Positions 32,474-60,485 are shown, numbered from the stretch's first letter. The stretch: 64,000 nt of DNA from Patescibacteria group bacterium (GCA_034520665.1 JAXHNJ010000001.1:194579-258578); one strand, 5' to 3'. Made by a program: numbers and translations. Notes: generated by a model from the letters alone, not told the origin.

Positions 32474-32532
32474 TTCGTATAATAAACAAATTTGAGGTGA
32501 TTATACGAAATCAATTTGTATAATAATGAGTT
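32474..32532 (+). repeat. 59-bp palindromic element, copy 1 of 3 (also 50821..50879 and 60415..60473)
   Basis: ttcgtataat-aaacaaatttgaggtg-attatacgaa (10-bp inverted repeat around a 16-nt spacer) followed by atcaatt-tgtataataatgagtt (a third half-site). Confidence 0.7.
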
Positions 32533-32641
32533 AAGTCGAATTTTTTCTTCTGCTAAAAATTTAAATCTCTAATATATATTTCCCACGCAAAGAAGCGCGC
32601 TAACTACAAACTTAATTGAAGTTTTAGAAACCTTTATAAGA

Positions 32642-33238
32642 TTGAGTAAATTAAACTATTATATGAACAAAACATTATATATTTTAATTGGAGTAATCTT
32701 AATTGTAGCTTCTTTCTATATAGGCTATACAATTAAAAGTCCTACATCTGCATCACAAGAAATACAAAATCTTAAAAATCAAATAACAAATTTACAGCAA
32801 CAAAATAGCCAATTGCAATCTAATGTAAAAGAGCTGCAAAACCAACTTCAAAATGAAAATGGCTCCGAGAATTCTCAAGATTCAAATACTGGAGCAAAGG
32901 GAAACATTGAATATGGTAAGGGGGATTGTATGCCTTGTGTCTGTGCAGATGAAGATTGTACTGGATGCCCAGAAAGAACTTATTCTGATTTTAGTGGTGA
33001 TATTTATTTTATTCTAAAAAGTGATTTAGATACTTTGGGAGATGGTGATTTTGATAACTTAATTGAATCTAGTGCTAAAACTCTGGTTACTAATGGGAAT
33101 TATGAAATCAGTTTGGCTCCTGGAGAATATTTCGTTATGCCAAGAGATGTTTATCAGTATGATAAAAATTTCATAAATATTTCTTCAGGGAATATGGTGG
33201 AGAAAGACTTCAAATTCTTTAAATGTACTTCATATTAA
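32642..33238 (+). CDS. cassette ORF: N-terminally anchored coiled-coil/Cys-containing protein, unknown function
   Basis: 198 aa. TM near N-terminus, Q/N-rich coiled coil, CxCxxxxCxxC cluster. Confidence 0.45.
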   Translation: MSKLNYYMNKTLYILIGVILIVASFYIGYTIKSPTSASQEIQNLKNQITNLQQQNSQLQSNVKELQNQLQNENGSENSQDSNTGAKGNIEYGKGDCMPCVCADEDCTGCPERTYSDFSGDIYFILKSDLDTLGDGDFDNLIESSAKTLVTNGNYEISLAPGEYFVMPRDVYQYDKNFINISSGNMVEKDFKFFKCTSY

Positions 33239-33356
33239 ATTAGAGCGCGCTCCCCACCCCAAGATAAGAGATTTAAATTTTTTAAACGCAGAAGAAAAAA
33301 CTCCTTCGCTTTGCTCGGTGACGCCTTGCAGGCTCTCGACATAAATGCCTCACACG

Positions 33357-33442
33357 ACTTAACAGCGATTATCTGGAATTTTCCTGCGAAAAATCCCAAA
33401 ATTCTGCTACGCAGAACTTCAGATAATCGCGATATATTAGAC
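33357..33442 (+). repeat. attC-like site
   Basis: R''-like ACTTAAC, L'' GCGATTATCTG ... L' CAGATAATCGC, R'-like ATTAGAC. Confidence 0.5.
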
Positions 33443-33495
33443 GAAATGCGAGCGAGCTGATTGATTTATAAATAGAATATGCTTTAAAATAATTT

Positions 33496-34041
33496 ATGAT
33501 GAAAATTATTATGGATTCAAAAATTAAGATCTTAATGGGATTTTTGATTATTGGAATTATTCTAATTGGTGTATTGTGGATTTTGAGTAACCGACCATCG
33601 GAAAATGTCCCCAATGAAGAAACATACAAAAAAGGCGAAAGTATAACATTTAAGATAGATGATAATGTTCAAATTTGCACCGATGATTTGCCTTTCTCTA
33701 TAATTAAATTTAATGAAGAGTCGGTAAAATTAAAACATTCCTGTATAGGAGAAATAGGTTCGGGTTTTGATCAATATTGTGAGAATGGGAAAATGGTTTT
33801 AAAACCAGTTTATCAACTTTGTGATTTCCTAGAGAAATGGTGTCGGGGTTGTAACGATGCACTTACTTGTCGGAATAAATTTATTCATGAAACATTTGTG
33901 TGGGATCAAAAGGAATATGTTGAAACAACTGAAGAATGTGAAGGCAAAATCATTCATAGAGAATTAAAAAAGCAGGTTCCAGAGGGTAAGTATCAAATTA
34001 TTGTAGACGGAAAGATTATCAAAGAATTTACAATAAAATAA
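33496..34041 (+). CDS. cassette ORF: N-terminally anchored Cys-rich protein, unknown function
   Basis: 181 aa, one N-terminal TM, 10 Cys. Confidence 0.45.
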   Translation: MMKIIMDSKIKILMGFLIIGIILIGVLWILSNRPSENVPNEETYKKGESITFKIDDNVQICTDDLPFSIIKFNEESVKLKHSCIGEIGSGFDQYCENGKMVLKPVYQLCDFLEKWCRGCNDALTCRNKFIHETFVWDQKEYVETTEECEGKIIHRELKKQVPEGKYQIIVDGKIIKEFTIK

Positions 34042-34095
34042 AATTTATGACGGCTCGCTCGCACTTAAAACCCTTCGGATTTTGCCCTTCGGGTC

Positions 34096-34172
34096 GTCTA
34101 ACAAGGGCTATACGGCTACGGCTTTCAGCTTTCGCCCAAATTTCGACTTCGTCAAAACTTCGTATAGCCCAA
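34096..34172 (+). repeat. attC-like site
   Basis: GTCTAAC-aa-GGGCTATACG ... CGTATAGCCC-aatac-GTTATAT: R''/L''...L'/R' organisation with a perfect 10-bp L''/L' pair. Confidence 0.55.
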
Positions 34173-34249
34173 TACGTTATATGAAATTGCGGGGCTATAA
34201 CAAATTTTTGCAAAAGTTTTATTAACCTATACAAAATAACTACAATATT

Positions 34250-34705
34250 ATGAAGAAGAAAATCCTAATCACAACAATCACCATTTTATTAGTAGCTTCT
34301 ATTACAATTATATATTTCTTTTTTGCCAATCAAAATCAATTACCAATATCGAAAAATGTGTCTCGGAATGTTTTAGAGATATGCAAAGAAAAAAGTAAAA
34401 TAGAGTGTCATGGCAATTGCATGGATGGTTTTGCAGAAATTGGATATTTTGATTCGCGAAAATATAGTAAACAAGACTTTTTAGATACTCCCGAGGAACT
34501 CTACAAAACATATGGGGAAAAAAGAGAAATGATCCTTGCTTCTCATTACCAAAGCAGCTGTGATCCTTGTGGAAACAAATTTGAGCTTAATAAAAATGGT
34601 GTTTTTCAAGAGGTTTCTTGTGAAGAATTTTTTGAAACAATTGAAAATATTAATAAATCCTGCAATGGTTGTGTGAACACAATATATTTACAAATTAGTG
34701 GATAG
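34250..34705 (+). CDS. cassette ORF: N-terminally anchored Cys-rich protein, unknown function
   Basis: 151 aa, N-terminal TM, 11 Cys. Confidence 0.45.
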   Translation: MKKKILITTITILLVASITIIYFFFANQNQLPISKNVSRNVLEICKEKSKIECHGNCMDGFAEIGYFDSRKYSKQDFLDTPEELYKTYGEKREMILASHYQSSCDPCGNKFELNKNGVFQEVSCEEFFETIENINKSCNGCVNTIYLQISG

Positions 34706-34784
34706 TAAAAATCCTGGCCCGGCAACTCTCCCTCACATCTTCGCTGTTCGGTCGGCACGCTGCACTCTCGCTATCGCTCGGCTC

Positions 34785-34874
34785 ACTTAACACGGCTTAT
34801 GCGGAAACCTCGTTGCACTTCGGTTTCCCAAATGCTCACTACGTTCGCACTTCGCATAAGCCGATACGTTAGGC
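34785..34874 (+). repeat. attC-like site
   Basis: ACTTAAC-ac-GGCTTATGCG ... CGCATAAGCC-gatac-GTTAGGC: a perfect 10-bp L''/L' pair. R' is GTTAGGC. Confidence 0.55.
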
Positions 34875-34919
34875 GATGTTGTGCTGATTTTATCCAGTAT
34901 ATAACCTAAATAAAGAAAC

Positions 34920-35504
34920 ATGAATAAATTTATCCTAGTCATTATTATCATCATTATTGGAGTGGGTATTTGGTGGTGGCAACAATCTGCCAATACTGTC
35001 ATTACGAATACTGGCTGGCTGACATATGAGAATAGAGATTACAATTTTGAACTGCAATATCCAAATGACTGGACCCCTCAAGAGTCGTCTTATGACGATA
35101 TAAATACTGAAGAAAACAAATGGGAACCCAAATATTGGGAAGATTGGAAGGTGGTAAAAAAGATATCTTTCAACACTAGTGTTGAATTTTTTTATCTTGA
35201 TGTTTATATCATGGATCAGAGTATTGAAAGTGTGCTAGACAAGGTAGGAAAAAATCATAGCAATTCGCCCTTTCAGCCTTCCTTAGAGGAAATAAAAATT
35301 AACGCCAATCAAGCTTATGTTACATCTGTTTGCGATTTGGGTTGTTGTTCTAAAGATGTTTATATTGCCAAAGATGAAAATACTACTATACAAATTGCTA
35401 GGGGAGCTGTTTGTAGCGTAGGATCAGAAGAAAATATACAAAAAGCTGAAAACAATACAAATACTTTTGAGCAAATTCTGACTACTTTTAAATTTGCGAA
35501 ATAA
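34920..35504 (+). CDS. cassette ORF: N-terminally anchored protein, unknown function
   Basis: 194 aa, N-terminal TM, W-rich. Confidence 0.45.
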   Translation: MNKFILVIIIIIIGVGIWWWQQSANTVITNTGWLTYENRDYNFELQYPNDWTPQESSYDDINTEENKWEPKYWEDWKVVKKISFNTSVEFFYLDVYIMDQSIESVLDKVGKNHSNSPFQPSLEEIKINANQAYVTSVCDLGCCSKDVYIAKDENTTIQIARGAVCSVGSEENIQKAENNTNTFEQILTTFKFAK

Positions 35505-35520
35505 AAATCAGCACAATATC

Positions 35521-35583
35521 GCCTAACAGCGTATATATGTTATTCCACTTCGCTCCACGGCGCATGATACGCAAACGTTAGAT
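35521..35583 (+). repeat. attC-like site (short)
   Basis: GCCTAAC-AGCGTATATATG ... CATGATACGCaaac-GTTAGAT. The upstream 16 nt (aaatcagcacaatatc) are the reverse complement of 34875-34890, the 5' end of this cassette. Confidence 0.55.
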
Positions 35584-35652
35584 GAAATAATTAAATTCTT
35601 TTGGCTATCGCCAAAAATTATTGGAACAAATTTTTATTTTATTTTTTAAGAT

Positions 35653-36711
35653 ATGAACAAGAATCAAATTATAACATTATCAGGATATAGCATCATTCAT
35701 GGAATTATAGATTTGTGCTGTGCGATAGTTGTTTTTAGTACATTGCTATATCATGGTTATGACGCAAGTGATGTTTTTATTTTTGTTGTGGCTTACAATA
35801 TAATTGCTTTTGGATTACAAGCACCTTTTGGATTGTTAGTGGATAAGTATCAAGTTCCTAAAGAAAGCGCATTTATTGGTTGTACTTTGGTTTTGTCTTC
35901 TTTTTTCCTATTCAACATTCCAGCTTTAGTGATAATACTATCTGGACTAGGGAATGCTTTTTTTCATGTTGGCGGAGGAAGCATTAGTTTGAATTTCAAT
36001 CCACAAAAAGCAACCGCTCCTGGAATTTTTGTTGCGCCGGGTGCGTTAGGACTGACAATTGGAATTTTGATTGGCAAAAGTGGCTCATTTATTTTTTGGC
36101 CTTTTGCATTACTACTTATTTCTTCATGTCTATTTATTATTTTTAGTAAAATTCCAGAGATTAATTATCAAAAAATATCAACTAAACCTAAAATAAATTA
36201 TTTTGAATTGGTAATACTATTGCTCTTGCTATCCGTATCAATAAGAGCATTATATGGTCTGACCGCTGTTTTCGCCTGGAAAGCAAATATTGCCTTGCTG
36301 TTTTCTCTAACTATTGCAGTAGTCGCCGGAAAAGCTTTAGGTGGTTTTTTGGCTGATAAATTTGGTTGGATAAAAACTGCTATTTTTGCTCTAATAATTT
36401 CCGCTCCCTTGCTTTCTTTTTTTCAAGGATCACCAATACTTGCAATAATAGGTGCATTCTTATTTCAAATTACTATGCCGATAACTTTAACAGCATTATC
36501 AAATATGCTTCCAGGCAGATCAGCTACCGCTTTTGGTTTAACAGTTTTGGCCTTAATAATCGGTGCCATTCCCGTTTATTTGGGGGCTAAGTCATTTTTA
36601 AGTACTCAATGGATTGCATTAATAATAATCATAATTTCAGCAAGTTCGCTACTTATTAGTTTTAAATTTCTGTATAATTATTTTAAAGGTCAACTCAAAA
36701 TAAATTTATAA
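35653..36711 (+). CDS. cassette ORF: polytopic membrane protein (MFS-transporter-like, ~10-12 TM)
   Basis: 352 aa, almost entirely hydrophobic helices with short loops. Confidence 0.4.
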   Translation: MNKNQIITLSGYSIIHGIIDLCCAIVVFSTLLYHGYDASDVFIFVVAYNIIAFGLQAPFGLLVDKYQVPKESAFIGCTLVLSSFFLFNIPALVIILSGLGNAFFHVGGGSISLNFNPQKATAPGIFVAPGALGLTIGILIGKSGSFIFWPFALLLISSCLFIIFSKIPEINYQKISTKPKINYFELVILLLLLSVSIRALYGLTAVFAWKANIALLFSLTIAVVAGKALGGFLADKFGWIKTAIFALIISAPLLSFFQGSPILAIIGAFLFQITMPITLTALSNMLPGRSATAFGLTVLALIIGAIPVYLGAKSFLSTQWIALIIIIISASSLLISFKFLYNYFKGQLKINL

Positions 36712-36727
36712 TTTAATCATAATAACT

Positions 36728-37009
36728 ATGAAAAAATTAAAAACAGTTCTAACAACCTTTTTCGTCTTTAGTATTTTCTCATTAATGTCCACTCAAAAAG
36801 CCTTAGCAGACTTAGTGCCGATAAATTATGGAGATGATACACCTTACGGACCAAACGTTAATTCAAACCCAGAGCCAAACGTTAATTCAAGCCCAGAGCC
36901 AAAAACATTTATTGATTTAATTGAGCCGCAACACATTATTATTGGCGGAGCGGTATTGGCTGTAGTAATAATATCTTTTGTAGTACTTTTTAAAATGAGA
37001 AAAAAATGA
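36728..37009 (+). CDS. cassette ORF: small secreted protein with C-terminal TM anchor and basic tail
   Basis: Signal peptide, PEPNVNS repeats, C-terminal hydrophobic segment plus KMRKK. Confidence 0.4.
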   Translation: MKKLKTVLTTFFVFSIFSLMSTQKALADLVPINYGDDTPYGPNVNSNPEPNVNSSPEPKTFIDLIEPQHIIIGGAVLAVVIISFVVLFKMRKK

Positions 37010-37341
37010 GATTTGAATACTATTCTTTAGCTCTAATTTTCACTCTAGTAATTGAGTTATCTGTAGCTTATATTTTAGGATTTAGGAATAAAAAAAGCAT
37101 TGTCACGATTATTTCTGCCAATCTTATAACACACCCTTTGCTTTGTTACTTTTTATGGATAAATTCATTTATTTTCATTATTCCTGTTAACTATTTCTCA
37201 ATTGTTGTTTTAGAAATATTGGTTATATTATTAGAATCAGCATTACTATTCTTCGCATTGAAACAACAATATTTAGATATGCTAAAAGTATCATTTGTCA
37301 TAAACACAACCTCTTTCCTTGTTGGATTATTATTATTTTAA
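37006..37341 (+). CDS. cassette ORF: small membrane protein (3 TM)
   Basis: 111 aa, hydrophobic. Start overlaps the upstream stop. Confidence 0.4.
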   Translation: MRFEYYSLALIFTLVIELSVAYILGFRNKKSIVTIISANLITHPLLCYFLWINSFIFIIPVNYFSIVVLEILVILLESALLFFALKQQYLDMLKVSFVINTTSFLVGLLLF

Positions 37342-37422
37342 AATAATTTTTAAATAATAGAAAAATAAAAATAAATTTGCCCAATAATAACTCGCTTACG
37401 CTCGTTGAATTTAATTACATTA

Positions 37423-37516
37423 TATTAACAGCATGTATGAGGCTACGGCTTTTTACAAAAGTCACCACCCAAATTGCTCTCTGCGGTCGCAATTTCTCAA
37501 ATCCCTGACGTTAGGT
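37423..37516 (+). repeat. attC-like site
   Basis: TATTAAC ... GTTAGGT. The internal block ggctacggctttttacaaaagtcaccaccca is homologous to the element at 39942..40035. Confidence 0.45.
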
Positions 37517-37632
37517 GAAATAGCCAGAAATCTTTAATTATTTTTAGAATTTCTTTGGCAATTTAATAGGTTGAACATAGCTTGTGATATAATATTATAA
37601 ATCTTAAAATATAAATTTTTAATCAAAAAAAT

Positions 37633-38535
37633 ATGGAATCATTAGAAAAATTTAGTAAAATTGAAAAAGAAAAACCAGAATATACATCAAAAATAAAGTT
37701 GTCATTCTTTCGCCATGCGGAAAAAGAAAAGGATAAATCAAAATCTGATTTAAAAATTAGACTAACAGAAGAGGGTAGAAAAAATAGTAAAAAGAAAAGT
37801 GATACTCTAAATATCAGGCAATCAGTCGTCTTTGGTAGTCCCCGTGAAAGAGCACAGGAAACAGCTTCTTTTAGAATGTCTGGAAATCAGGAAGAAATAA
37901 CAGGGGAAGAAACTTTTGAAGAATTAAAAGATAAATTAAATAAGGGATTAAAAGTTGGATCAAAAATTAGCGTAGATAAAAGATTAGATTCTGATTTGGA
38001 CATGGAAAGTGATTTTGGTAAAATCTCTTTAGAAAATTTTAAAAAGGGTCAATATCTAAAATTTTTAGTTGAGGAAAGCGATAGTTTGGCTAAAGAAAAA
38101 GATGATACTAAAGGTTTTACTTATTTGAAAAGTGCTTCAAATGTAGCAAAAATAATTGAAAAATATTTAAGCATTTCTAAACGATGGGATAAACTGGTGC
38201 AGGACCCACAAAAAAACTATGATGATACCTTAGAAAGATATTTTGGCACCCACTTAAGTGTTGGCGAGTGTTTTTTGGCTAAAGCAATAGAAGAGACAGA
38301 AGGTGAAGAAAAAAGAGATGAGTTTGTCAAAGCTCTCAATAATCAGGGATTTGATTTTAATGAGGGTTTTGAAATAGAAATTTTAAACAGCGAAAACGAA
38401 CCATCCGTTCATATATCTTTCAAAAAAGAACTTAGCGACAAAGAAGAAGGCAAAGAAGAAGTAAAAAACGTTTTTGAGTTTGATCAAAATCTATCCATAG
38501 ATACTATAAAAAAAATAGCGGAAAGTAATCAATAA
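37633..38535 (+). CDS. cassette ORF: acidic protein, possible histidine-phosphatase-superfamily (RHAE motif)
   Basis: SFFRHAEKE...LTEEG resembles the RHG/RHAE catalytic motif of the PGAM-like family. A similar motif occurs in the 61168..62223 ORF. Confidence 0.3.
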   Translation: MESLEKFSKIEKEKPEYTSKIKLSFFRHAEKEKDKSKSDLKIRLTEEGRKNSKKKSDTLNIRQSVVFGSPRERAQETASFRMSGNQEEITGEETFEELKDKLNKGLKVGSKISVDKRLDSDLDMESDFGKISLENFKKGQYLKFLVEESDSLAKEKDDTKGFTYLKSASNVAKIIEKYLSISKRWDKLVQDPQKNYDDTLERYFGTHLSVGECFLAKAIEETEGEEKRDEFVKALNNQGFDFNEGFEIEILNSENEPSVHISFKKELSDKEEGKEEVKNVFEFDQNLSIDTIKKIAESNQ

Positions 38536-38578
38536 ATTGCCAAAAAAATAATAAAGAAAAGAAATTTCTGTCTACGTC

Positions 38579-38674
38579 ACATAACAGCGTGTATCTGGTT
38601 CGCCCCTCGGCTCGCAAATTTCCCAAATTTTCTCCGCTACGCTCCGAAAACTTCTCATAAGCCCGATGTTATAC
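38579..38674 (+). repeat. attC-like site
   Basis: ACATAAC-AGCGTGTATCTGG ... GTTATAC. The upstream gaaatttctgtctacgtcac is the reverse complement of the sequence following R' at 37517-37535. Confidence 0.5.
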
Positions 38675-38736
38675 GAAATAACTAAATTCTCTTCTGCTAT
38701 CGTCGAAAAATTATTGGAACAAATTTATTTTTATTT

Positions 38737-39885
38737 ATGAATAATATTGAAAAAAAAATTCCTCTTGAAAATAAGGCTGAAACTATGAGAATACCTGAAA
38801 TTAATATTAGAGAAGAAAAGGGCGCAACGCTTTTATCAATTTTATTACGAGGCTACAATCAAGATTTTGGTAGCCACGACCATGAATTATCTCAAAGAGT
38901 AGATGAATATTTTGAACAAAATCCTCTTGACGAAAAATCAATCAAATTATTAAAAGAAATTAAAGCTCTAGAAGACGACGGCGTTGATGGGGAAACATTA
39001 TTCAACATTGTTTTAACACACGACGATGAAGACAGGGTTGAATCTTTGCTTGAATTTATTTCTAAACATAAAGAGTGCGTAAAAAAACCTGAGAAACTAA
39101 GAAATAATCTTCTGAAAGCAATCAATGATCTAGAAAATAAATTACCAGAAGCATTAAAACAAGATTTTGACAAAGCCACATCTGAAGATATCAAAATACG
39201 AGAGCAAAACATAGAAGATTCCAAACAAAGAATAAAAAAATTGATTGATTTTTTTAGGCCACAAACTAATACAACAAAAACTAAAGAAGTAGTCTTGCTC
39301 CCTACCGATTTTTTAATGTCTGAAAAATCGGGAGTCGCTTTTAATTTTGGGGATAATCTTTATATTTCTTCACATGTCGATAATCCGCATAATTTAGAGC
39401 ATGAATTCTTGCATTGCATCATTAACCCGATCGTTGATAAACTAGATAAAAAATTATCAGATGAACAAAAACAAAAAATAAGCAATCTCGCGAGTGATAA
39501 ACTAAAAGTTGAGCAAGGCTATGGGAAAGAATATTACAGTTTACTTTGCGAAGAATTCATCAGAACTTACAATGATGTTTTTCAACACGGGAAGCAACCG
39601 ATAGTTTATAATGATTTTGTTCAAAAAATTGAAAGCTTAGATGAAGAACAATTTAATTCTTTACTTTCGAAAAAAGAGAGTCTAAAAAATCGTTGCGCCC
39701 AATTGCAGATAAACACATTTGAAGATTTTAAAAACAAAAGTCAAGAATATTTTGACGCTTTTGAAAAAAATGATTTACGAGAAATCATATTTAAATTCTA
39801 CCAGGATTTCACAAAAGAAAAAGAAAAAAATCCAAATTTAGATTTTGAGGAGTTTGTTTTAAAGGAATTTAATAATAGAATATAA
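38737..39885 (+). CDS. cassette ORF: hypothetical protein with HExxH motif (possible zinc metallopeptidase)
   Basis: 382 aa. Single HEFLH motif (LEHEFLHCIIN). No TM. Confidence 0.3.
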   Translation: MNNIEKKIPLENKAETMRIPEINIREEKGATLLSILLRGYNQDFGSHDHELSQRVDEYFEQNPLDEKSIKLLKEIKALEDDGVDGETLFNIVLTHDDEDRVESLLEFISKHKECVKKPEKLRNNLLKAINDLENKLPEALKQDFDKATSEDIKIREQNIEDSKQRIKKLIDFFRPQTNTTKTKEVVLLPTDFLMSEKSGVAFNFGDNLYISSHVDNPHNLEHEFLHCIINPIVDKLDKKLSDEQKQKISNLASDKLKVEQGYGKEYYSLLCEEFIRTYNDVFQHGKQPIVYNDFVQKIESLDEEQFNSLLSKKESLKNRCAQLQINTFEDFKNKSQEYFDAFEKNDLREIIFKFYQDFTKEKEKNPNLDFEEFVLKEFNNRI

Positions 39886-53397: not shown

Positions 53398-53461
53398 CCG
53401 CCCTCCGCCCAACGCTAAAAGGGACGCTGCGCTTTCGCTTCACTGTGTTACGCTCACCCTC

Positions 53462-53560: not shown

Positions 53561-53606
53561 GTAATAATAAAAAGTTTCTCAATAACATTATTAACACTCT
53601 AAAACT

Positions 53607-53894
53607 ATGGAAAAAAAAGTAAAAATTAAAAAAATGAGGTATCTGTGGTGTCCTAATTGTAATCACTATATGAGACTTAAAATGAAAGAAAGAAACATCT
53701 TCGCATTACTTTTTGGAGGTTTACTTGGTAGTATATGGTCAGTCACGCATGTGCCAGAATCAGAGAAAATTTGTGGTAAATGTGGAAATAAAGAAAATCT
53801 AAAATTTGTGTATTTACGTACAGAAGTCGGTTTTAAAAGTGAGGAATTTGCCTATTATCTACCATCAGGCGAAAAAATAGTTTTTAATAAATAG
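53607..53894 (+). CDS. cassette ORF: small zinc-ribbon protein with one TM
   Basis: 95 aa. CPNC...CGKC pairs and a central hydrophobic segment. Confidence 0.4.
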   Translation: MEKKVKIKKMRYLWCPNCNHYMRLKMKERNIFALLFGGLLGSIWSVTHVPESEKICGKCGNKENLKFVYLRTEVGFKSEEFAYYLPSGEKIVFNK

Positions 53895-53915
53895 TTGGGG
53901 AATTTTTATTACATC

Positions 53916-54013
53916 GCCTAACTCGGCATATCTGGTTACCCTAGCCGTTCGCGAACAGCTGGATCCACCCATATCTCCCTTCGGGAGACATCAAATATAC
54001 GCAAACCTTATAG
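53916..54013 (+). repeat. attC-like site
   Basis: GCCTAAC-tcggc-ATATCTGG ... CAAATAT-acgcaaac-CTTATAG. Confidence 0.5.
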
Positions 54014-54085
54014 GAAATAGAATTTTTACTAAAAAAATTGGGAACTAACTACAAGATTTATTAAAATTACCTTTTTTATAATTTT

Positions 54086-55072
54086 ATGATCAACATTAAT
54101 GATAGAGTATATGGTAGAAATATAATTCAAGAGTCAGTTTTAATTGAACTTATTAATACCAGCCCCATTCAAAGATTAAAGGGGATAAATCAAGCAGGTG
54201 CTTCCCAATATGCAATAGAAGGCAAAACGGTAACGAGATATGAACATTCTTTGGGTGTAATGATATTATTAAAAAAATTAGGTGCATCGATTGAAGAACA
54301 AATCGCAGGATTACTTCACGATATTTCTCATACTGCTTTTTCGCATGTAATTGATTTTGTATTTAGAGATACCAATTATAATCATGAGTTTCATGAAAAA
54401 TTTCATGAACAAATAATACTTCAATCAGAAATACCCACTATTTTAAAAAAATTTAATTTCGACATAGATAGAATTTTAGATGAACATAATTTCTCCTTAT
54501 TAGAAAAATTCTTACCTGATCTCTGTGCAGATAGGATAGATTATACATTAAGAGGTATGGTGGCGAGTGAAGGTTTTAGTGATAAAATAAATAATTATAT
54601 TTCATGTTTCATGGTTCAAAACAATGAAATTATTATTCATGGAGAGCTAATCGCAAAAAGTTTTTCAGAGGATTATCTTAGAATGGATGAAGAAAAATGT
54701 TCTCATCCTCTTGAAGTTGCATTATTTCAAATTTTAGCTGATGCAATAAAAATTGCTTTGGATAAAAAAATACTTAATGAAAAAGGCTTATTTGAAGATG
54801 ATTTATCTGTGTATACAAAACTAAAAGAATCAGGCAACCAATTGATTTTAAATAAATTAGAAATGCTCAATCCCAAATTAAAGATTATTGATGACCCTAA
54901 TGACTTTCATTTTCATTCTAGAAATAAATTAAGATATATTAATCCTAAATTTCTTGATTCAAACGGCTCAATTCATCGTGTGGCAGAGAGGTTTAAAGAT
55001 TTTTCAGATAAACTTGTAAAACACGAAGAAAAGATTAAAAAAGGTATTTTTGTTAGGATTATTTCTTATTAA
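54086..55072 (+). CDS. HD-domain protein (HD-superfamily phosphohydrolase)
   Basis: YEHSLGV...LLHDISHTAFSH. Confidence 0.55.
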   Translation: MININDRVYGRNIIQESVLIELINTSPIQRLKGINQAGASQYAIEGKTVTRYEHSLGVMILLKKLGASIEEQIAGLLHDISHTAFSHVIDFVFRDTNYNHEFHEKFHEQIILQSEIPTILKKFNFDIDRILDEHNFSLLEKFLPDLCADRIDYTLRGMVASEGFSDKINNYISCFMVQNNEIIIHGELIAKSFSEDYLRMDEEKCSHPLEVALFQILADAIKIALDKKILNEKGLFEDDLSVYTKLKESGNQLILNKLEMLNPKLKIIDDPNDFHFHSRNKLRYINPKFLDSNGSIHRVAERFKDFSDKLVKHEEKIKKGIFVRIISY

Positions 55073-55175
55073 CGCTCCCAACCTTTAAAATTGACTCACT
55101 TTATTAGATATAAATAAACGTAAAAATTCTACTCAAGGGGACGCTGCGTTTTCGTTGCTAACGCTCCTCACTCTC

Positions 55176-55260
55176 GTATAACAAGGGATATGCGGTTCCC
55201 TCCAGAGGTGGGCAGGCAGCCCTCGTCTCGGGCTTCACCCAAATTTTTCTGATATAATTC
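55176..55260 (+). repeat. attC-like site, 3'-truncated or degenerate
   Basis: GTATAAC-aa-GGGATATGCG...ccagaggtgggcaggcagccctcgtctcgggcttcaccc is homologous to 52628-52690. No matching L' or R' downstream. Confidence 0.35.
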
Positions 55261-55313
55261 AAATGCCAACGAAACCATAACTTTATATTTAACCAAATTT
55301 TTAACTTATTAAT

Positions 55314-57587
55314 ATGTGCGGAATAGGAGCAATTTATGGAAAGAACATAAAAGAAAAAGAGTTTTCCATAAAGCGAAGTCTACAATTAATAGAACATCGA
55401 GGATATAGTTTATATGAAACTAAGATTTTAGATAATTGTGTTCTCGGCTGTAACAGATTAGAAATTGTGGATAGACCAAAAGCCATACAACCTCAGACAA
55501 ATGAAGATGAATCTGTTTTTGTTGTATTCAATGGAGAGATTTTCAATTATAAAGAATTAATGAAAGAACTTTCTGATAAAGGGCACAAATTCAAAACAAA
55601 TTCAGACACAGAAGTTTTAGTTCATCTTTGGGAAGAATATGGCGAGGAAATGGTTAAAAAATTAGATTCTGAAATGTTTGCCTTTTTTATTTATGATAAA
55701 AACAAAAATTCTTTTTTTGTAGCAAGAGACCCTTACGGAATAAAACCCTTGTATTATGCTCTTGATAATTTAGGAAATTATCATTTTGCCTCTGAAATTA
55801 AGCAACTATCTCAATTTAAAGAAATTGATGAGATTTCTTTTTTTCCACAAGGAAATTTTATGTTAAACGGCAAATTAAAACAATATCATAAAATTCCAAA
55901 GGTAACTGAAAAACTGAAAGCTCCTTTACAAGAAATAATTGAAAATGTAAGAATCTTATTTGATGAAGCAGTCAAAAAAAGAGTTGATACAGATTTGCCT
56001 GTTGGAGTCTTTTTTAGCGGAGGAATAGATAGTTCAGCTGTATTAGCGACAGCAGTAAAATATCATAAAGATGTTACTGCAATAATTGTTGGTCATCCTC
56101 ACGCCCCAGATGTTTTAATTGCAAAAAAATACTGCGAAGAAAACAAGATAAAATATATTTATTTTAATCCTCCAACGGAAAAAGAACTTTTTAAAATCAT
56201 TCCCGAAATTGTTTACATAACTGAAAGTTTTGAGCCTAATATGATTAGGCAGTCGGCAGTTTCTTACTATATTTCTAAAATCGCAAAAGAAAATGCATTC
56301 AAGGTTATTTTATGCGGAGAAGGTCCAGATGAAATTTTTGCCGGTTATCCTGAATTTAGAAACTGCAAAACTGAAAAAGAAATCTCAAATAAAATAAACG
56401 ACTTTATTCTAAATCTTCCAAGAACACAATTTCAGAGAGTAGATAGAACCTCAATGAATTTTACTCTTGAAGTTAGAGTCCCATTTTTTGATACAAAATT
56501 TGCAGATTATTCAATTAAAATTCCGAGTAAATACAAAATAAAATCTAAGAGAAAAGAAAAAATTACAAAATGGATTTTAAGGGAAGCAATGAAAGACAGA
56601 TTACCTGATTACATTGTAAATAGACCCAAAGTCGTTTTAAGCGAGGGAGCTGGATTTAAAGGAAATCAGTTAATCGGAGGGTTATTCTACGATATTGTTA
56701 AAAATAATATTACTGAAGAAGAATTTAAGAGGATAAAAAAAGATTATACCGATTGGAACATCACTAATAAAGAAGTTGCTCATTATTTCAAAATTTATGC
56801 AAAACATTTATTCACGAAGGCAATATTCAATAAAAAAAGACCCTTAGTAAACGCAATAGATTCTATAAAAAATGAAAAATCAGAATTTTTAACTGAAAAA
56901 ATTCTGGACACAATTCATTCAAAGGGATTTTTCAAAGATTCCCCTTACAAAGAAGATGAACTAAAAAAAGTTATTCTTGACTCTGTAAGAAACAGCAAAG
57001 AAATTAAGATAGTTGGGTATTGGGGAATTGAAAAAGAAAAACTAGATAAATCCGAAGAAACAGCTTTCAATTTTCTAAAGGATTTAGAAAAAAAAATTAA
57101 GAAATCTTACAAAAAAGTAAAAATAACCTTAATTTTGACTGATATCCATGGAGAATTAAATTCAATTGACAGCAAAATAATAAACAGCTATTTTTCAAAG
57201 GTTATTTCTCTATCCAAAAAATACAAATTTCAAACTATATTTCTAAGTGACCTCTGGAAAAGAAACAATTTGGATTTAACAAAAGTAAAAAGTGAATTAG
57301 AAAAAAAGCCAAAAATCTGGTGGCAAAAATTTTCAACAAAAAATCAATTATTAGAGTCTTCTAAAAAACACCATAAAGGAAAAGATATTGAAATCGGGGC
57401 AAAAATGTATGCTCTTGCTTCAAAGTATGATTCTGAGTTTGTAGAAAAAGAATTTAATGATTCTATATTTTTCACTTATAATTCTAAATCTTGGCAAAAT
57501 ACCTTGCCTGACATGCCTACAATTTATTTATATGGATTAGGAAAAAATAAGAGTATAAAACCTTGGCATTTGAAATATTCTTTTTAG
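55314..57587 (+). CDS. asparagine-synthetase-B-like amidotransferase with ~250-aa C-terminal extension
   Basis: N-terminal MCGIGAIYG (Ntn Cys of class-II GATase). FFSGGIDSSAVLA PP-loop. An extra C-terminal domain of unknown function. Confidence 0.65.
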   Translation: MCGIGAIYGKNIKEKEFSIKRSLQLIEHRGYSLYETKILDNCVLGCNRLEIVDRPKAIQPQTNEDESVFVVFNGEIFNYKELMKELSDKGHKFKTNSDTEVLVHLWEEYGEEMVKKLDSEMFAFFIYDKNKNSFFVARDPYGIKPLYYALDNLGNYHFASEIKQLSQFKEIDEISFFPQGNFMLNGKLKQYHKIPKVTEKLKAPLQEIIENVRILFDEAVKKRVDTDLPVGVFFSGGIDSSAVLATAVKYHKDVTAIIVGHPHAPDVLIAKKYCEENKIKYIYFNPPTEKELFKIIPEIVYITESFEPNMIRQSAVSYYISKIAKENAFKVILCGEGPDEIFAGYPEFRNCKTEKEISNKINDFILNLPRTQFQRVDRTSMNFTLEVRVPFFDTKFADYSIKIPSKYKIKSKRKEKITKWILREAMKDRLPDYIVNRPKVVLSEGAGFKGNQLIGGLFYDIVKNNITEEEFKRIKKDYTDWNITNKEVAHYFKIYAKHLFTKAIFNKKRPLVNAIDSIKNEKSEFLTEKILDTIHSKGFFKDSPYKEDELKKVILDSVRNSKEIKIVGYWGIEKEKLDKSEETAFNFLKDLEKKIKKSYKKVKITLILTDIHGELNSIDSKIINSYFSKVISLSKKYKFQTIFLSDLWKRNNLDLTKVKSELEKKPKIWWQKFSTKNQLLESSKKHHKGKDIEIGAKMYALASKYDSEFVEKEFNDSIFFTYNSKSWQNTLPDMPTIYLYGLGKNKSIKPWHLKYSF

Positions 57588-57785
57588 AAAAAAACAAAAA
57601 AAGTGCACGTCTTTCTAATATCTAGCTCTCCATATAAAAAAATAGCTAACAAGATATTAAAAGAATTAAAAGATGATGGAAATGGATGACGATTTTCAGG
57701 ATTTTTTGAGAAAAGGGGAGTGAGGTAATTTATTTTTTTATATCTTGACAGGTTATTTCAGTTATGATACAATTATGTCATATAT

Positions 57786-58421
57786 ATGAAATACAAGTCA
57801 AAAACTAATTTGCTTGAAGAGTTAAAATCTTTACCTTATTTTACTAAAGAACGTATTTATCAATTAGGTAAAAACGATAAGATTTATAATTTAAAAAATA
57901 GCACTTTAGATACCTATATAAGCCGATATTTAAAAAATAGAGAAATTATTGCCTTAAAAAGAGGTATGTATATATCTAATAATTTTTACCATAAAAATAG
58001 TGATGATCTTTCTTATATATACTTTTTAGCAAATATTATCAGAAAACCTTCATACATTAGTTCGTGGACGGCTCTAGAGTATTATGGTTTATCTACAGAA
58101 GTAATAAATAGTACTATTTCAGTAACAACAAAGGTAACTAGAAATTATGAAACTAAAATTGGAAATTTTACCTATAAATCTATAAAAAATGATTTATTTA
58201 CCAATTTTTCCTTAATAAATAAAAAATTTAATTTTTATATTGCCCCACCCTCAAAAGCACTTTTTGACATGCTATATTTTAAAACACGTCAATATAAAGA
58301 CGTAAAATATCATGATATAGATCTATTGATTAAAGAGTTACGTGTTGATATTAAGTCAATGGATAAAAAAGAGGTAAAAAAATTTAATTTAATGATAAAA
58401 GATTACTATGATTATGGATAA
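57786..58421 (+). CDS. AbiEi-like antitoxin / transcriptional regulator (type IV TA)
   Basis: N-terminal wHTH with ...YISRYLKNREIIALKRGMYIS (AbiEi-type LxxxGxLxRLxRGxY). Overlaps the downstream gene by 14 bp. Confidence 0.5.
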   Translation: MKYKSKTNLLEELKSLPYFTKERIYQLGKNDKIYNLKNSTLDTYISRYLKNREIIALKRGMYISNNFYHKNSDDLSYIYFLANIIRKPSYISSWTALEYYGLSTEVINSTISVTTKVTRNYETKIGNFTYKSIKNDLFTNFSLINKKFNFYIAPPSKALFDMLYFKTRQYKDVKYHDIDLLIKELRVDIKSMDKKEVKKFNLMIKDYYDYG

Positions 58422-59706
58422 TCAAATTATTTTATTAATTAAAAAAAAGCTACGAGAAATACCTGTTACTAGTGGACCGGTAGCTTTAATAAAAAGAAAT
58501 TCCGCTAAGGAGCAATTACAATATTATGTTTTAAACTTTATTTATAATAATTCTAAATATAATAAGTGGATTATGTATGGTGGATCAGCTCTTCGTATTT
58601 GTCACAAATTAAATAGAATGTCAGTAGACTTAGATTTTGAAGTTAATCATAAAATTACTAATAAATTTTTAGGTGATTTTGAAAGTAAGATAGTTTCTTA
58701 TTTTAAAAATGATTATAATGTTGATTCAGGAATACTTACTACTAGTATTAATAATAAAAGAGGTATTACATTAAAGTTTAAAATTGGAGATAAGATTGGA
58801 TTGAATTTTGCTTCAAAGATTGTAAAAGTTAAGATTGACTTGAATTATTTTAAAGTTCCTGAAACTGTCGTGGTAGAAAATCATCCTATTAATGAAGATC
58901 AATTTTCTTTTATTATCAGAACATACAACATGTCTGCCTTAATGTCCAGTAAAATAGCGGCTATTTTTTTACGTGGTAAACGTGGAGTGGGAAAAGAAAT
59001 TTATAAAGAAAAAGGCAGGGACATTTATGATTTATTGTGGTATATGTCAAAAAAAACTATTCCCGATTTGGATTATTTAAATGCCAAGAAAATTAATTTT
59101 AATAATCCAAAAGATCTTTTTGATAAGTTAACTGTTAAGATATTAAATAATAAAAAAACAGATAAAAATCTTAAACAAGATTTACCGCCTCTTTTTTTAG
59201 ATCAAGCATATATAAATAACTGGATTAATAATTGGCGAGATAGCTACTTATATTTATTAAAAGAATATAAATTTTCAAGTGTGAAAGATTTAAAAAAAAT
59301 AGAAGTAATTCAAGATTTTTCTACGGGTATATATTCATTTGTATATTTTTATAACAGTAAGGAAAGTACTCTAATAAGAATAATATTTAATATTAGTGAA
59401 TATTGGATTGATTTTAAAGAGGGAAATTTATCCATTGAAATTAGTAAAAATGTTAAAGACCATTTTGATTTTAAAACTAGAGTAATTACTAATCGCCCCT
59501 CATCTAAAAAGAAATTGATGCAATATGCTGAATTATTTCTTCGAAAAACTGAAAAATATTTCAAAAAGTCTAACAATATAATTATGAACAACACTATTTC
59601 TACTAAGGTTATTCGCATGACATCTGATAATTTAAAATTAGAAAAAGAAATTCTGTTAAATAAAGAGACTCTTATTAAATGTGAATTAGAAGACTTATTG
59701 CCGTAA
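58408..59706 (+). CDS. AbiEii/AbiGii-family nucleotidyltransferase toxin
   Basis: KWIMYGGSALRICHKLNRMSVDLDFEV matches the GG(T/S)AL...R.S.DlDf nucleotidyltransferase signature of AbiEii. Confidence 0.6.
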   Translation: MIMDNQIILLIKKKLREIPVTSGPVALIKRNSAKEQLQYYVLNFIYNNSKYNKWIMYGGSALRICHKLNRMSVDLDFEVNHKITNKFLGDFESKIVSYFKNDYNVDSGILTTSINNKRGITLKFKIGDKIGLNFASKIVKVKIDLNYFKVPETVVVENHPINEDQFSFIIRTYNMSALMSSKIAAIFLRGKRGVGKEIYKEKGRDIYDLLWYMSKKTIPDLDYLNAKKINFNNPKDLFDKLTVKILNNKKTDKNLKQDLPPLFLDQAYINNWINNWRDSYLYLLKEYKFSSVKDLKKIEVIQDFSTGIYSFVYFYNSKESTLIRIIFNISEYWIDFKEGNLSIEISKNVKDHFDFKTRVITNRPSSKKKLMQYAELFLRKTEKYFKKSNNIIMNNTISTKVIRMTSDNLKLEKEILLNKETLIKCELEDLLP

Positions 59707-59745
59707 AATCTTTAGAAATAGAAATTAATAATTTGTTAAAATAAC

Positions 59746-60300
59746 ATGAAAGCTTTAATCTTGCCTGGTAATAACAATACTTTAATCACCAACAATTGGT
59801 ATCTTTTTGTTAAAGAAAAATTAGAAAAACTGGGTCTAGAAATCACAGCCAAAAATATGCCGGATCCGAAATAGCCCACCGAAAAATTTGGTTGCTCTTT
59901 ATAAAAAAGAGACTTGAGGGAGACGAAAATTCCATTTTAATTGACCACTCCACTGGAGCGGTAGCCACTTTGCGTTATCTTGAAAAAAATAAATGCCGTT
60001 TGGTAATATTAGTATCTTGTTATTATACTGATCTTGATGATAAAATGAAAAAAAAGTGGTTATTTTGATGATCCTTGGTTATGGAAGAAAATAAAAAATA
60101 ATGCTGGGAAAATAGTTATTTTTACCTCAAGGGATGACCCTTATATTCCTATTGACCAACCGCGTTTAATTAAAGAAAAAGTTGAGGCCGAGTATCGTGA
60201 ATACAAAGATGAAAAACTTTTTGGTATGAATAGGAAAAAAGAATTTCCTGAAATTATAACGGTTGTTAAAAAAATGATAGAAAATCATAAAGAAAAATAA
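59746..60300 (+). pseudogene. frameshifted remnant of an alpha/beta serine hydrolase (YdeN/RBBP9-like)
   Basis: MKALILPGNNNTLITNNWYLFVKEKLEKLGLEITAKNMPDPK* is followed in other frames by ...LIDHSTGAVATLRYLEKNKCRLVILVS... and ...GKIVIFTSRDDPYIPIDQPRLIKEKVEAEYREYKDEKLF.... At least two frameshifts. No ORF of 60 aa or more survives. Confidence 0.55.
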
Positions 60301-60302
60301 AT

Positions 60303-60485
60303 GACTATTTTCAGGATTTTTTGAGAAAAGGGGAGTAGGAGAAGAGGTTTTTTTATTGGTAAAAAAAATGGTAAACTATAAACAGTTTCGGATTATATAA
60401 TGGTTTAATAAAAATTCGCATAATAAACAAATTTGAGGTGATTATACGAAATTAATTCGTATAATAACGAGTTGTCAGAAATTTT
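60303..60485 (+). repeat. ~180-bp segmental repeat, copy 2 (see 50708..50890)
   Basis: ~93% identical to 50708-50890, including the promoter-like ttattggtaaaaaaaatggtaaactataaa and the 59-bp palindromic element. Confidence 0.75.

Follow-up and report, generated by a model that had tools for sequence, protein, structure and literature searches.

A 59-bp element of Patescibacteria as a probable attI-type attachment site of an integron-like cassette system

In Patescibacteria (CPR), a group for which no attI description was found in the literature searched, a 59-bp element very probably serves an integron-like cassette system as its attI-type attachment site. A scan of the window, the whole stretch of 64,000 nucleotides analysed here, finds exactly three occurrences of the 59-mer (0.00 expected from shuffles), all on the + strand, with two mismatches in the first copy, none in the second and two in the third; pairwise identities among the copies are 57/59, 55/59 and 57/59. 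A preliminary description of this DNA had reported three copies, and the scan bears it out, with starts at 32474, 50821 and 60415. In the gene and attC map, their placement at the array start, before the DUF218 cassette and before the NUDIX cassette is likewise as first described, and all three sit at cassette junctions. Short-read contigs of the source sample end within copies 1 and 3.

32474..32532, + strand: putative attI copy 1; similarity to the backbone intergenic region stops at 32473; box 1 TTCGTATAAT at 32474-32483, box 2 ATTATACGAA at 32500-32509, box 3 TTTGTATAAT at 32515-32524; crossover G32530 / T32531
50821..50879, + strand: putative attI copy 2; synteny with relatives stops at about 50772; boxes at 50821-50830, 50847-50856 and 50862-50871; crossover G50877 / T50878
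60415..60473, + strand: putative attI copy 3, heading the NUDIX cassette; boxes at 60415-60424 (TTCGCATAAT), 60441-60450 and 60456-60465; crossover G60471 / T60472

The element consists of TTCGYATAAT (box 1), 16 nt, box 2, 5 nt, a second TTCGYATAAT (box 3) and six bases, followed by a G|TT crossover. The boxes resemble recombinase arms and match the arm consensus of the R' sites in the array's own attCs (TTATACGAA, for example at 38669). As a sequence pattern, the direct TTCGYATAAT boxes are conserved and match the attC R-arm consensus; binding by a cognate integrase and recombination with attC are predicted. The preliminary description had stressed a palindrome with a third half-site. Across the element family, however, it is the two direct repeats and the AG|TT crossover that are kept, while the 10-bp inverted repeat is not conserved, shows no covariation and is lost in 5/5 integrase-anchored lineages. 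Six homologous elements were recovered by patterns requiring boxes 2 and 3, and their similarity is therefore partly by construction. A promoter-like ttattggta...taaactataaa proposed earlier fails a sigma-70 consensus scan. Copy 1, which begins 124 nt past the murF stop and ahead of the first attC (33353), is preceded by a 10/12 promoter-like site, TTGATT-17-TATAAT (32408-32436), although finding one such site does not exceed what shuffles yield. Copy 2 precedes a DUF218-like ORF.

The following attC sites, intact and truncated, were found in the window.

33353..33447, + strand: attC of the first cassette after copy 1 (covariance model R1, 64.6 bits; fold), with R'' at 33355-33363
34092-34187, 34781-34879, 35517-35588, 37419-37521, 38575-38679, 39938-40040, 40727-40798, 41636-41739, + strand: eight further attCs of sub-array 1 (34092..41739; fold, covariance model)
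46470..46523, + strand: truncated attC, left half only (repeat comparison)
47012..47031, + strand: truncated attC stub, R''-like CATATAACAGCC..., joined to intergenic copy B at the right junction of insertion 1
51601..51808, + strand: long attC (208 nt) of the DUF218 cassette, first after copy 2 (by eye and fold; missed by the model)
52620-52747, 53458-53565, 53912-54018, + strand: three attCs of sub-array 2 (52620..54018; covariance model)
55172..55250, + strand: truncated attC, left half, 95% identical to 52626-52698, opening the low-GC block (29.5 bits)
60986..61084, + strand: attC of the NUDIX cassette, first after copy 3 (covariance model, 66.1 bits)

Thirteen attCs of the window have in common R''/R' cores (RYYYAAC / GTTRRRY) and L''/L' stems. 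Of the cells in these 13 sites 74% are paired, compared with 24-41% when slid; compensatory change affects eight pairs, in 23 cells, a number that 2/500 shuffles attain. As in attC cassette arrays, the sites are imperfect palindromes with stems kept by structure rather than by sequence. A model built from the window's attCs also matches sites at other loci that carry the element (four in L060, and others in L044, L014, L057, L056 and L047), always on the strand of the element and downstream of it. Upstream of copy 1 in the window, the covariance model finds no attC.

All three copies and all homologs are conserved through AG and diverge past TT. Past the crossover, copy 1 has GTTAAGTCG, exactly complementary to the R'' (CGACTTAAC) that the first attC carries 822 nt downstream; copy 2 has GTTGTGCGA there, which is likewise exactly complementary to TCGCACAAC, the R'' of the DUF218 cassette attC at +723. 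The 9-mer complementary to the post-crossover GTTNNNNNN is also exact (9/9, as at these two copies) at the first downstream R'' in L047 (+477) and L056 (+293), the chance of an exact 9-mer within 3 kb being about 1%. It is present with one mismatch (8/9) in L014, L044, L060 and L069 and reaches only 7/9 in L057; copy 3 does not show it. By sequence comparison, everything to the right of the crossover G proves to be cassette-derived. The G|TT junction thus has the form found in an integron attI, site-specific on its left and cassette-derived on its right with a match to attC R'', except that copy 3 does not share this match. Since the right arm of copies 1 and 2 is cassette-specific and complementary to the R'' of the cassette's own attC, it carries the mark of a folded attC recombined with an attI and not that of a double-strand dif capture.

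At nine distinct loci, metagenomic or genomic, the order is a divergent gene for a 270-aa tyrosine recombinase, the element, and an attC cassette array. The recombinase start codon lies 20-75 nt from box 1 on the opposite strand in L014, L052, L045, L033, L056, L057, L060, L063 and L069. The first four of these were reached by DNA pattern; the others belong to five lineages reached from the protein alone (L056, L057-59, L060-61, L063-68 and L069-72), all of which have the element adjacent. The partner enzyme carries the tyrosine recombinase catalytic domain (PF00589 at 1e-44; PF13495), and its best PDB match is the integron integrase VchIntIA (2a3v, E 4.6e-45). However, the IntI-specific additional domain (around patch III), an insert thought necessary for attC recombination, is absent: residues 177-198 of the query span 181-245 of VchIntIA, so that about 43 residues are missing, and the score against TIGR02249 is 223, in two pieces and under the cut-off of 265. 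Homologs among the 120 matches listed are 257-293 aa long, mostly 270-273, and the family has more than 7,000 homologs in Patescibacteria. An identical integrase, P0070, has different genes on the attI side in different samples, the variants diverging 28 nt past the crossover and not at it. Within the 64-kb window tblastn (best E 1.2) and Pfam scans found no integrase homolog, and instead of an integrase gene copy 1 follows murF and copy 2 a native 197-aa gene; a second orphan element, in L044, follows rnc. With no recombinase gene in the window, any activity here must come in trans, from an unseen gene. The preliminary description had offered several readings of the element. Those of a recombinase site, attI-like modules and sub-array boundaries gain support from the G|TT junction and the adjoining recombinase gene; those of an operator and an RNA leader do not.

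The same pairing of site and enzyme could be read as a dif-like Xer site beside a chromosome-dimer resolvase, the neighbouring variable DNA being integrated elements that exploit Xer; we consider this unlikely. In XerS/difSL and XerH/difH the site is placed beside the recombinase gene, and the partner enzyme passes the cut-off of the XerA family (NF040815, 236 against 220), is annotated XerD in many genomes and belongs to the very widespread family described above. In addition, box 3, the 7-nt spacer and the R' arm, as read from the sequence, resemble the dif layout of 11 nt, 6-8 nt and 11 nt. However, a dif site is single in its replicon and lies at the replication terminus, the GC-skew switch, whereas the element has three copies within 28 kb. 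Across all three the cumulative GC skew climbs monotonically, which indicates no terminus, and the L056 locus lies about 6 kb from dnaA and that of L057 beside parAB. The right arm is moreover cassette-specific and the complement of the cassette's attC R'', and the downstream units close in structured attCs with covariation.

A second reading, very improbable, places the element in the first cassette's 5' UTR as a structured RNA (leader, attenuator or riboswitch) in which box 1 would pair with box 2 and box 2:box 3 would form an alternative hairpin. The copies in the window can be folded into the box 1:box 2 hairpin at -12 to -19 kcal/mol, the spacer contains GAGGTG, and promoter-like sequence lies upstream. 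However, a z score of -3.9 is reached only by copy 2 (-1.6 for copy 1, -1.3 for copy 3). The box 1:box 2 pairing has no compensatory changes and is no better than that of shuffles (467/500), and the box 2:box 3 pairing has a single one (140/500 shuffles). No Rfam family matches at the gathering score; ES003 comes closest, with 22 bits where 37 are required. Box 2 is degenerate in the 5/5 integrase-anchored lineages, the spacer is not conserved, and neither, on inspection of the sequence, is its short ORF among the copies. The leader or riboswitch proposed in the preliminary description is thus already largely refuted by the missing Rfam match, the negative covariation check and the loss of the inverted repeat.

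The surroundings of the copies were compared with three close Patescibacteria relatives, L073, L074 and L075, in which murF, a histidine kinase gene, an asparaginase gene and the 197-aa gene are contiguous, without the element or an array.

32355..32473, + strand: intergenic copy A, with a terminator-like hairpin and TTGATT-17-TATAAT; reads into copy 1
32474..47031, + strand: insertion 1 relative to the relatives, with copy 1, nine intact attC cassettes, Fic and other genes, and truncated attCs (synteny and attC map)
47032..47158, + strand: intergenic copy B, which is the native region between murF and the kinase gene and now lies at the right end of insertion 1 (score 78 against that of L074, 0/500 shuffles)
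47159..50743, + strand: native backbone with a GAF histidine kinase gene, an asparaginase-like gene and the 197-aa gene
50702..50892, + strand: 191-bp repeat copy A, running from the final 13-14 codons of the native 197-aa gene through a 77-nt spacer and copy 2 into 13 nt of cassette
50773..64000, + strand: insertion 2, to the window end, with copy 2, cassettes, a low-GC block (AsnB, AbiEi/AbiEii, a pseudogene), copy 3 and further cassettes
57670..57750, + strand: partial duplicate, with 17 C-terminal codons of the 197-aa gene and about 27 nt, without attI, fused to the AbiE promoter region
60297..60486, + strand: 191-bp repeat copy B, downstream of a frameshifted hydrolase pseudogene; a segmental copy of the junction between backbone and attI-2

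Because the four genes are contiguous in the relatives, the native backbone here has taken up two separate insertions, one headed by copy 1 and the other by copy 2. The single array first described is therefore not one array, since 47159-50743 is native chromosome. Intergenic copy A resembles the relatives' single murF-kinase intergenic region (score 57 against L073, 0/500 shuffles) and intergenic copy B (score 50, 3/500 shuffles). The two repeats are identical in 179/191 columns (93.7%) with one 1-nt indel, close to the 180 bp and 93% given earlier. Copy A of the repeat begins within the last 13-14 codons of ORF 50150-50743 (...DDDFQDFLRKGE, stop), the last 15 in the earlier description. A third fragment of this segment, also described before, is real: 57670-57720 corresponds to residues 181-197 of the ORF product (tblastn, 94%, E 1e-5), a 17-codon gene tail, and the DNA similarity extends to a T-run at about 57750. 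Judged from these alignments, the backbone/attI-2 junction was duplicated segmentally, without site specificity, to give copy 3 and the 57.7-kb fragment.

This setting also bears on whether the element is an operator for a transcription factor, with the product of the upstream 197-aa ORF as the candidate regulator. The element has three repeated 10-bp half-sites, the ORF stops 77 nt ahead of copy 2, a repeat of the ORF's tail accompanies copy 3, and by eye the C-terminus of its product is ribbon-helix-helix-like. However, the ORF has no Pfam or NCBIfam domain and no tblastn homolog at any other element-bearing locus, the element is absent after its orthologs in L073, L074 and L075, and the genes ahead of copy 1 (murF) and the L044 copy (rnc) are unrelated. 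The operator suggested by the preliminary description is therefore very doubtful, although autoregulation by the recombinase at this site may occur and would fit an attI. That the element is a generic dispersed repeat (MITE or REP-like), present in the array by chance, is hardly credible: it is short, AT-rich, partly palindromic and found in several copies, but these number only three, share one orientation and all mark cassette junctions; neither terminal inverted repeats nor target duplications accompany it, each canonical locus has a single copy, and the many unrelated loci by which the earlier description would have recognised a MITE were not seen with a strict two-arm pattern over 185,579 species genomes, which gave one true homolog and 28 unrelated chance matches.

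As a putative attI, the element is comparable to attI1 and attIA of class 1 and Vibrio chromosomal integrons in standing at the head of an attC cassette array, in its 5'-G|TT-3' crossover, in the divergent recombinase gene that adjoins it in relatives, and in the promoter-like sequence upstream. Ahead of the crossover it likewise carries several boxes resembling recombinase arms, a core pair and further repeats upstream of it, comparable to L, R, DR1 and DR2 of attI1. However, attI1 has no sequence similarity to the 59-bp element, whose accessory box lies 41 bp upstream and which has an extra inverted box in some lineages. The window also differs in having three sites and no integrase within 32 kb upstream, and the cognate enzyme in having no IntI-specific domain. 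The copy 2 box ACTTCGTATAAT equals the loxP arm plus two spacer bases (ATAACTTCGTATA-AT). Both sites have tyrosine-recombinase arms, but they differ in how these are spaced and arranged, and a Cre-like gene is lacking; the 12-mer resemblance is probably chance or convergent. The single-recombinase Xer systems (archaeal XerA/dif, XerS/difSL and XerH/difH) share a site adjoining its gene and a dif-like core layout, and XerA the size and domain content of the partner enzyme (NF040815 above cut-off; PDB 4a8e, E 1e-42). In contrast to theirs, the element is multi-copy, away from a skew switch and cassette-derived in its right arm, and its partners are folded attCs.

Duplicated or partial attIs occur in the arrays of mobile integrons, where attI1-aadB-attI1 and delta-attI cassette architectures are reported to be recombination-proficient and readily excised (PMC12901181). 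Those arrays also have more than one attI in direct orientation in one cassette region. However, they belong to clinical integrons of classes 1 and 2, which have intI and single-gene units, whereas the repeats in the window are 18.3 and 9.6 kb apart, with native housekeeping-type genes in one interval and one attI copy from non-site-specific duplication. Archaeal integrons and CALINs (PMC9668308; IntegronFinder, PMC4889954) are likewise metagenome-derived structured attC arrays, often without a detectable integrase. Their putative attIs were identified by intI adjacency and the canonical insertion point, and archaeal IntIs are reported to keep the IntI-specific additional domain (PMC9668308), in contrast to the partner enzyme of the 59-bp element.

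By analogy with the class 1 and Vibrio paradigm, the recombinase would bind the boxes, with box 3 and the TTRRRYGAA arm as the core site and box 1 as an accessory site about four helical turns upstream. It would exchange one strand with a folded attC and so insert circular cassettes at G|TT, where an upstream promoter could read them. Direct-repeat copies would give the array several entry points; recombination between the repeats is plausible, and the 18.3-kb and 9.6-kb blocks between copies could be deleted or excised. Because the partner family has no IntI-specific insert, the system would represent a new variant of integron.

The 59-bp element is present three times in the window, always on the plus strand, and shuffled sequence yields no copies. 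As the preliminary description proposed, its second and third copies lie in a duplicated segment, which we extend from about 180 to 191 bp. The left edge of this segment falls inside the final 13-14 codons of ORF 50150-50743, and the extra fragment reported near 57.7 kb is a piece of the tail of the same ORF.

32474-32532, plus strand, element copy 1, two mismatches to the 59-mer
50821-50879, plus strand, element copy 2, no mismatches to the 59-mer
60415-60473, plus strand, element copy 3, two mismatches to the 59-mer
50702-50892 and 60297-60486, the 191-bp repeat containing copies 2 and 3, 179 of 191 columns identical
57670-57720, tail fragment of ORF 50150-50743, 17 codons, 94% identical

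The sequence before copies 2 and 3 that had been called promoter-like fails a sigma-70 consensus scan; a 10/12 sigma-70-like site (32408-32436) precedes copy 1. In copy 2, AACTTCGTATAAT (50817-50832) is identical to the loxP arm plus two spacer bases.

From 33.3 kb on, plus-strand ORFs alternate with imperfect palindromes bearing RYYYAAC and GTTRRRY cores, 13 of which fold as R''/R' plus L''/L' hairpins. Under a hand-drawn structure, 74% of the cells in the 13-site alignment are paired, versus 24-41% with the partners slid, and eight pairs show compensatory change (23 cells, reached by 2 of 500 shuffles). RNAalifold predicted no structure from the attC alignment. These palindromes are attC sites, the structured sites of gene cassettes, and the region is therefore an integron-type cassette array. 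A covariance model of the attCs found no site in the window upstream of copy 1 and placed every site on the plus strand. The cassette genes are mostly of unknown function, with DUF218-like, NUDIX, HD, methyltransferase, M15 peptidase, and Fic genes among them. Three attCs are cut to their left halves (46470-46523, 47012-47031, and 55172-55250), the first and last ending at an identical relative position (CCCAWATTTTKCT), and at each of them either non-cassette DNA begins or there is a junction with backbone.

Other repeats were observed among the cassettes. A second conserved intergenic repeat (AAAAAGCCTGTCAAAATGAAATT...GATAGGCTTTCAAAAGG...TTTCTTTATTAGAAAGGGGTAT; 41756-41829, 43233-43320, and 44528-44622) also occurs just after the element in three loci from elsewhere (L063, L066, and L068), and its 3' part recurs near the element in unrelated genomes (TTTTCTTTTTAAGAAGGGGGTATAAGGTGTTTTCTCC). 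This repeat may represent a common leader for translation initiation, the start of a small ORF, or another type of site. A GC-rich palindrome, CCCKCCAGAGGYGGGCAGGCASCCCT, lies within attC loops or cassette spacers at 41843-41868, 52646-52671, and 55198-55223, where the surroundings are 33% GC, and a long AT-rich palindrome (TATATGTTTATATACATTTGTTGACAGAATGTATACAAACATATATACTTTGTATACA, 41985-42050) is found just upstream of the Fic-domain gene 42062-43210.

Three lines of evidence, the junction, the partner gene, and the boxes, identify the element as an attI, the docking site for gene cassettes. The copies are alike through ...AACGAG and diverge past the next TT. The bases after this crossover (GTTAAGTCGAA, GTTGTGCGAAAT, and GTTGTCAGAAAT) resemble the R' ends of the array's attCs. 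Because a cassette inserted at G|TT supplies these bases, they should complement the R'' of its own attC. The complement is exact (9/9) for copy 1 (CGACTTAAC at +822), for copy 2 (TCGCACAAC at +723), and in two homologous loci (L047 and L056), has one mismatch in four more (L014, L044, L060, and L069), and fails for copy 3. In addition, inverting the box sequence TTCGTATAA gives TTATACGAA, which is the consensus of the arm that follows the G in the array's attC R' sites. An inverted-arm core is therefore made up of box 3, a 7-nt spacer, and the TTRRRYGAA of the cassette, and box 1 is a direct-orientation repeat of box 3 located 41 bp upstream. When the family is aligned in register, box 1, box 3, and AG|TT are kept. 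The attI can now be defined as TTCGYATAAT, 31 nt, TTCGYATAAT, four variable bases, and AG|TT. The palindrome first described is present in the window copies; however, box 2, which forms half of this inverted repeat, is degenerate in all lineages anchored by an integrase, the spacer is variable, and the arms do not covary.

Scanning a single genome from each species with a two-arm pattern yielded 29 loci; L014 alone combines all parts of the architecture, and its 16-nt spacer is unrelated. There a 270-aa tyrosine recombinase is encoded divergently, with its start codon 20 nt from the beginning of the element, and a cassette with its attC lies beyond the element.

3463-4275 of locus L014, minus strand, tyrosine recombinase with homologs in L052, L045, L033, and L056-L072

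Scanning metagenomes contributed L044 and L047, together with three loci (L052, L045, and L033) whose divergent recombinases share 49-65% identity with that of L014. In L044 an orphan element also lies directly after rnc. Most of the 29 genome and 24 metagenome matches are unrelated palindromes. Among the by-catch of the genome scan (L008, L013, L021, L012; L002, L005, L006, L020, L024, L026, and L028) are a longer palindrome of the same 10-mers in Caedibacter, Cysteiniphilum, and a spirochaete, and a hairpin (TTCGTATAAT-N12-18-ATTATACGAA) situated between a GGAGAAA Shine-Dalgarno-like motif and the start codon in uncultured gut Clostridia. A search of viral contigs with the element gave one chance match and then none.

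Since these loci had been chosen by DNA pattern, we also searched independently from the recombinase protein. At a threshold of E<=1e-40 it has more than 7,148 homologs; nearly all are roughly 270 aa long and carry the label Patescibacteria or Parcubacteria. In each of the five lineages for which we retrieved the surrounding DNA (L056, L057-59, L060-61, L063-68, and L069-72), the element lies between the recombinase start codon and the first divergent gene, and the attC model matches the downstream side of the protein-found loci on the same strand as the element. Genes on the attI side vary even where the recombinase is identical, as for P0070, one of the partner enzymes, in different samples. 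L063-L068 share the same integrase and attI followed by varying restriction-modification-type genes across samples (an N6/N4 methylase and helicase, an EcoRI-type methylase, or others). The first 28 nt past the crossover are common to all of these variants, and some 65 nt of additional sequence are present there in L066 and L068. The preliminary reading of the element as an attI-like module was thus right, given the G|TT junction, the partner recombinase gene, and the attC-like boxes.

The partner recombinase carries a phage-integrase catalytic domain, and among solved structures it is closest to 2a3v, the integron integrase of Vibrio (E 4.6e-45), with archaeal XerA behind. Where it aligns to VchIntIA, 21 of its residues stand against 64, and the IntI-specific insert of about 43 residues is therefore missing. 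It scores 223 as an integron integrase, below the cut-off of 265, and 236 as XerA, above the cut-off of 220; members of the family, more than 7,000 in Patescibacteria, are mostly annotated as XerD. The IntI-specific domain is cited as defining for integron integrases (PMC9668308). On that accepted definition the enzyme is not an IntI, yet it stands in the IntI position of a complete intI-attI-attC layout. The 64-kb window contains no tyrosine recombinase, and we found no integrase remnant upstream of any of the three copies. In three further loci (L031, L036, and L048) with a 45%-identical recombinase, a ATTATACGAA-N6-TTCGTATAAT palindrome lies about 60 nt past the 3' end of the gene and not before its start, possibly reflecting a sister family whose site is arranged differently.

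The backbone around the array is conserved. Upstream of copy 1 is the cell-division cluster mraZ-rsmH-ftsL-ftsI-murF (27341-32350), and the closest MurF homologs, 69-77% identical, are from Patescibacteria. In relatives murF is directly followed by a GAF histidine kinase, an asparaginase, and a 197-aa gene, and both element and attC are absent. By tblastx, 20031-32350 and 47091-50772 map onto these relatives, and this synteny with genomes lacking the array indicates native backbone and two insertions. The region 47159-50743 is native, about 14.6 kb (32474-47031) between murF and the kinase gene make up insertion 1, and insertion 2 starts about 30 nt past the stop of the 197-aa gene and extends to the window end. 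An attI heads each insertion. The earlier reading of sub-array boundaries is supported, and the region is not one array. Both copy 3 and the 57.7-kb fragment carry codons of the backbone gene, so they arose by segmental duplication of the copy-2 junction and were not produced by the integrase. A heliorhodopsin gene (16502-17308; Pfam 3e-103) and a 1568-aa surface protein (3187-7893, minus strand) with DUF11, SpaA, and SdrD repeats are located in the window's housekeeping part.

The murF-kinase intergenic region, consisting of a terminator and a promoter, flanks insertion 1 on both sides.

32355-32473, intergenic copy A, resembles the relatives' single region (score 57, 0/500 shuffles)
47032-47158, intergenic copy B, resembles the relatives' single region (score 78, 0/500 shuffles)
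55251-60296, low-GC block (25-29% GC) inside insertion 2, which includes a 757-aa asparagine-synthase-like gene
57786-59706, AbiEi-like/AbiEii toxin-antitoxin pair in the low-GC block
about 59747-60300, frameshifted hydrolase-like pseudogene in the low-GC block

The similarity of copy A ends flush with box 1, and on the right, insertion 1 ends in a truncated attC that is joined to copy B. Copy A is nearer to the region of the relative L073, and copy B to that of L074; compared with each other they score 50 (3/500 shuffles). The orphan attI could have originated by tandem duplication followed by microhomology deletion, or by Campbell-type integration, in which a circle integrates by homologous recombination. 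The duplicated intergenic region is consistent with either route. However, neither explains why copies A and B are only about 65% identical while the attIs are identical at 57 of 59 positions.

Alternative readings of the element fare less well. Box 3, 7 nt, and the R' arm recall dif, GCGCATAA-TGTATA-TTATG. However, a dif site is unlikely, as there are three copies, a GC-skew switch is absent, some canonical loci are near dnaA or parAB, and the right arm is cassette-specific. A structured RNA leader, suggested earlier from the inverted repeat, is not supported because box 2 is degenerate, the spacer is variable, and neither helix covaries: the box 1:box 2 helix has no compensatory changes and pairs no better than shuffles (467/500), and box 2:box 3 has one (140/500). 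Single-sequence folds are unremarkable in two of the three copies. Nor is the element an annotated riboswitch, with no Rfam match at gathering or E-value thresholds. We reject an operator of the upstream 197-aa ORF because this ORF has no recognisable domain and no homolog at other element-bearing loci, and the element does not follow its orthologs elsewhere; no record of the ORF itself exists elsewhere. A candidate leader peptide in the spacer (GTG-ATT-ATA...) was rejected, being truncated by a stop in copy 3 and in a different frame in L014. Homology of the 77 nt upstream of copy 2 to integrase-proximal regions of canonical loci is not claimed, since L052 alone was marginal among nine comparisons (33 vs 23.2±3.9; 6/300).

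As an attI, the element has an architecture, crossover position, and cassette complementarity that are demonstrated, as are its association with a recombinase gene and attCs and the synteny of its backbone. If class 1 and Vibrio integrons are a guide, the boxes would be bound by the recombinase, which would insert folded-attC cassettes at G|TT via single-strand exchange, and upstream transcription would express the proximal cassettes. On the same model the enzyme must act in trans in this genome, and the three direct attIs would be three entry points. They could also allow loss of the intervening 18.3-kb and 9.6-kb blocks, through the recombinase or through homologous recombination in the 191-bp repeat.

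The system is an integron of variant form on two counts. It has multiple integrase-less attIs, inserted in a conserved backbone, and a cognate recombinase family without the defining IntI domain. Arrays with more than one attI, complete or partial, are known from clinical integrons (PMC12901181). No description of a Patescibacteria attI, or of such a system, was found in the literature searched, a coverage incomplete enough that an earlier description is possible. The repeated attI breaks short-read assembly exactly at the junctions. Two contigs of run SRR26473340, apparently from the source sample, L001 and L062, end inside copy 3 and copy 1, respectively, and exact-protein look-ups of window genes returned only short contigs of this run ending inside the element.

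We consider it possible, with somewhat less than an even chance, that Patescibacteria (CPR) carry a large, apparently undescribed class of integron with a definable attI and a 270-aa, XerA-sized integrase lacking the IntI-specific domain, and that in some genomes, this one among them, the attIs are uncoupled from the integrase and multiplied, giving a single chromosome several promoter-proximal cassette entry points that are served in trans. Integron integrases are defined by the IntI-specific domain, which is regarded as indispensable to them and is a requirement of detection software. Standard tools, and any rule that calls for the insert, would class these arrays as CALINs without an integrase. 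If our proposal is true, a family of short recombinases exceeding 7,000 members, next to a conserved attI and structured attC cassettes, would change this view: cassette capture would not strictly depend on the IntI-specific domain, or another solution would exist, and many 'CALINs' of candidate phyla would be complete integrons. A defined attI opens the proposal to recombination assays and provides a sequence signature by which such platforms could be located in metagenomes. Integrase-less attIs inserted behind housekeeping genes would offer streamlined genomes a means of maintaining several expressed sites at which accessory genes enter, and they also create repeats that break short-read assemblies exactly at such hotspots.
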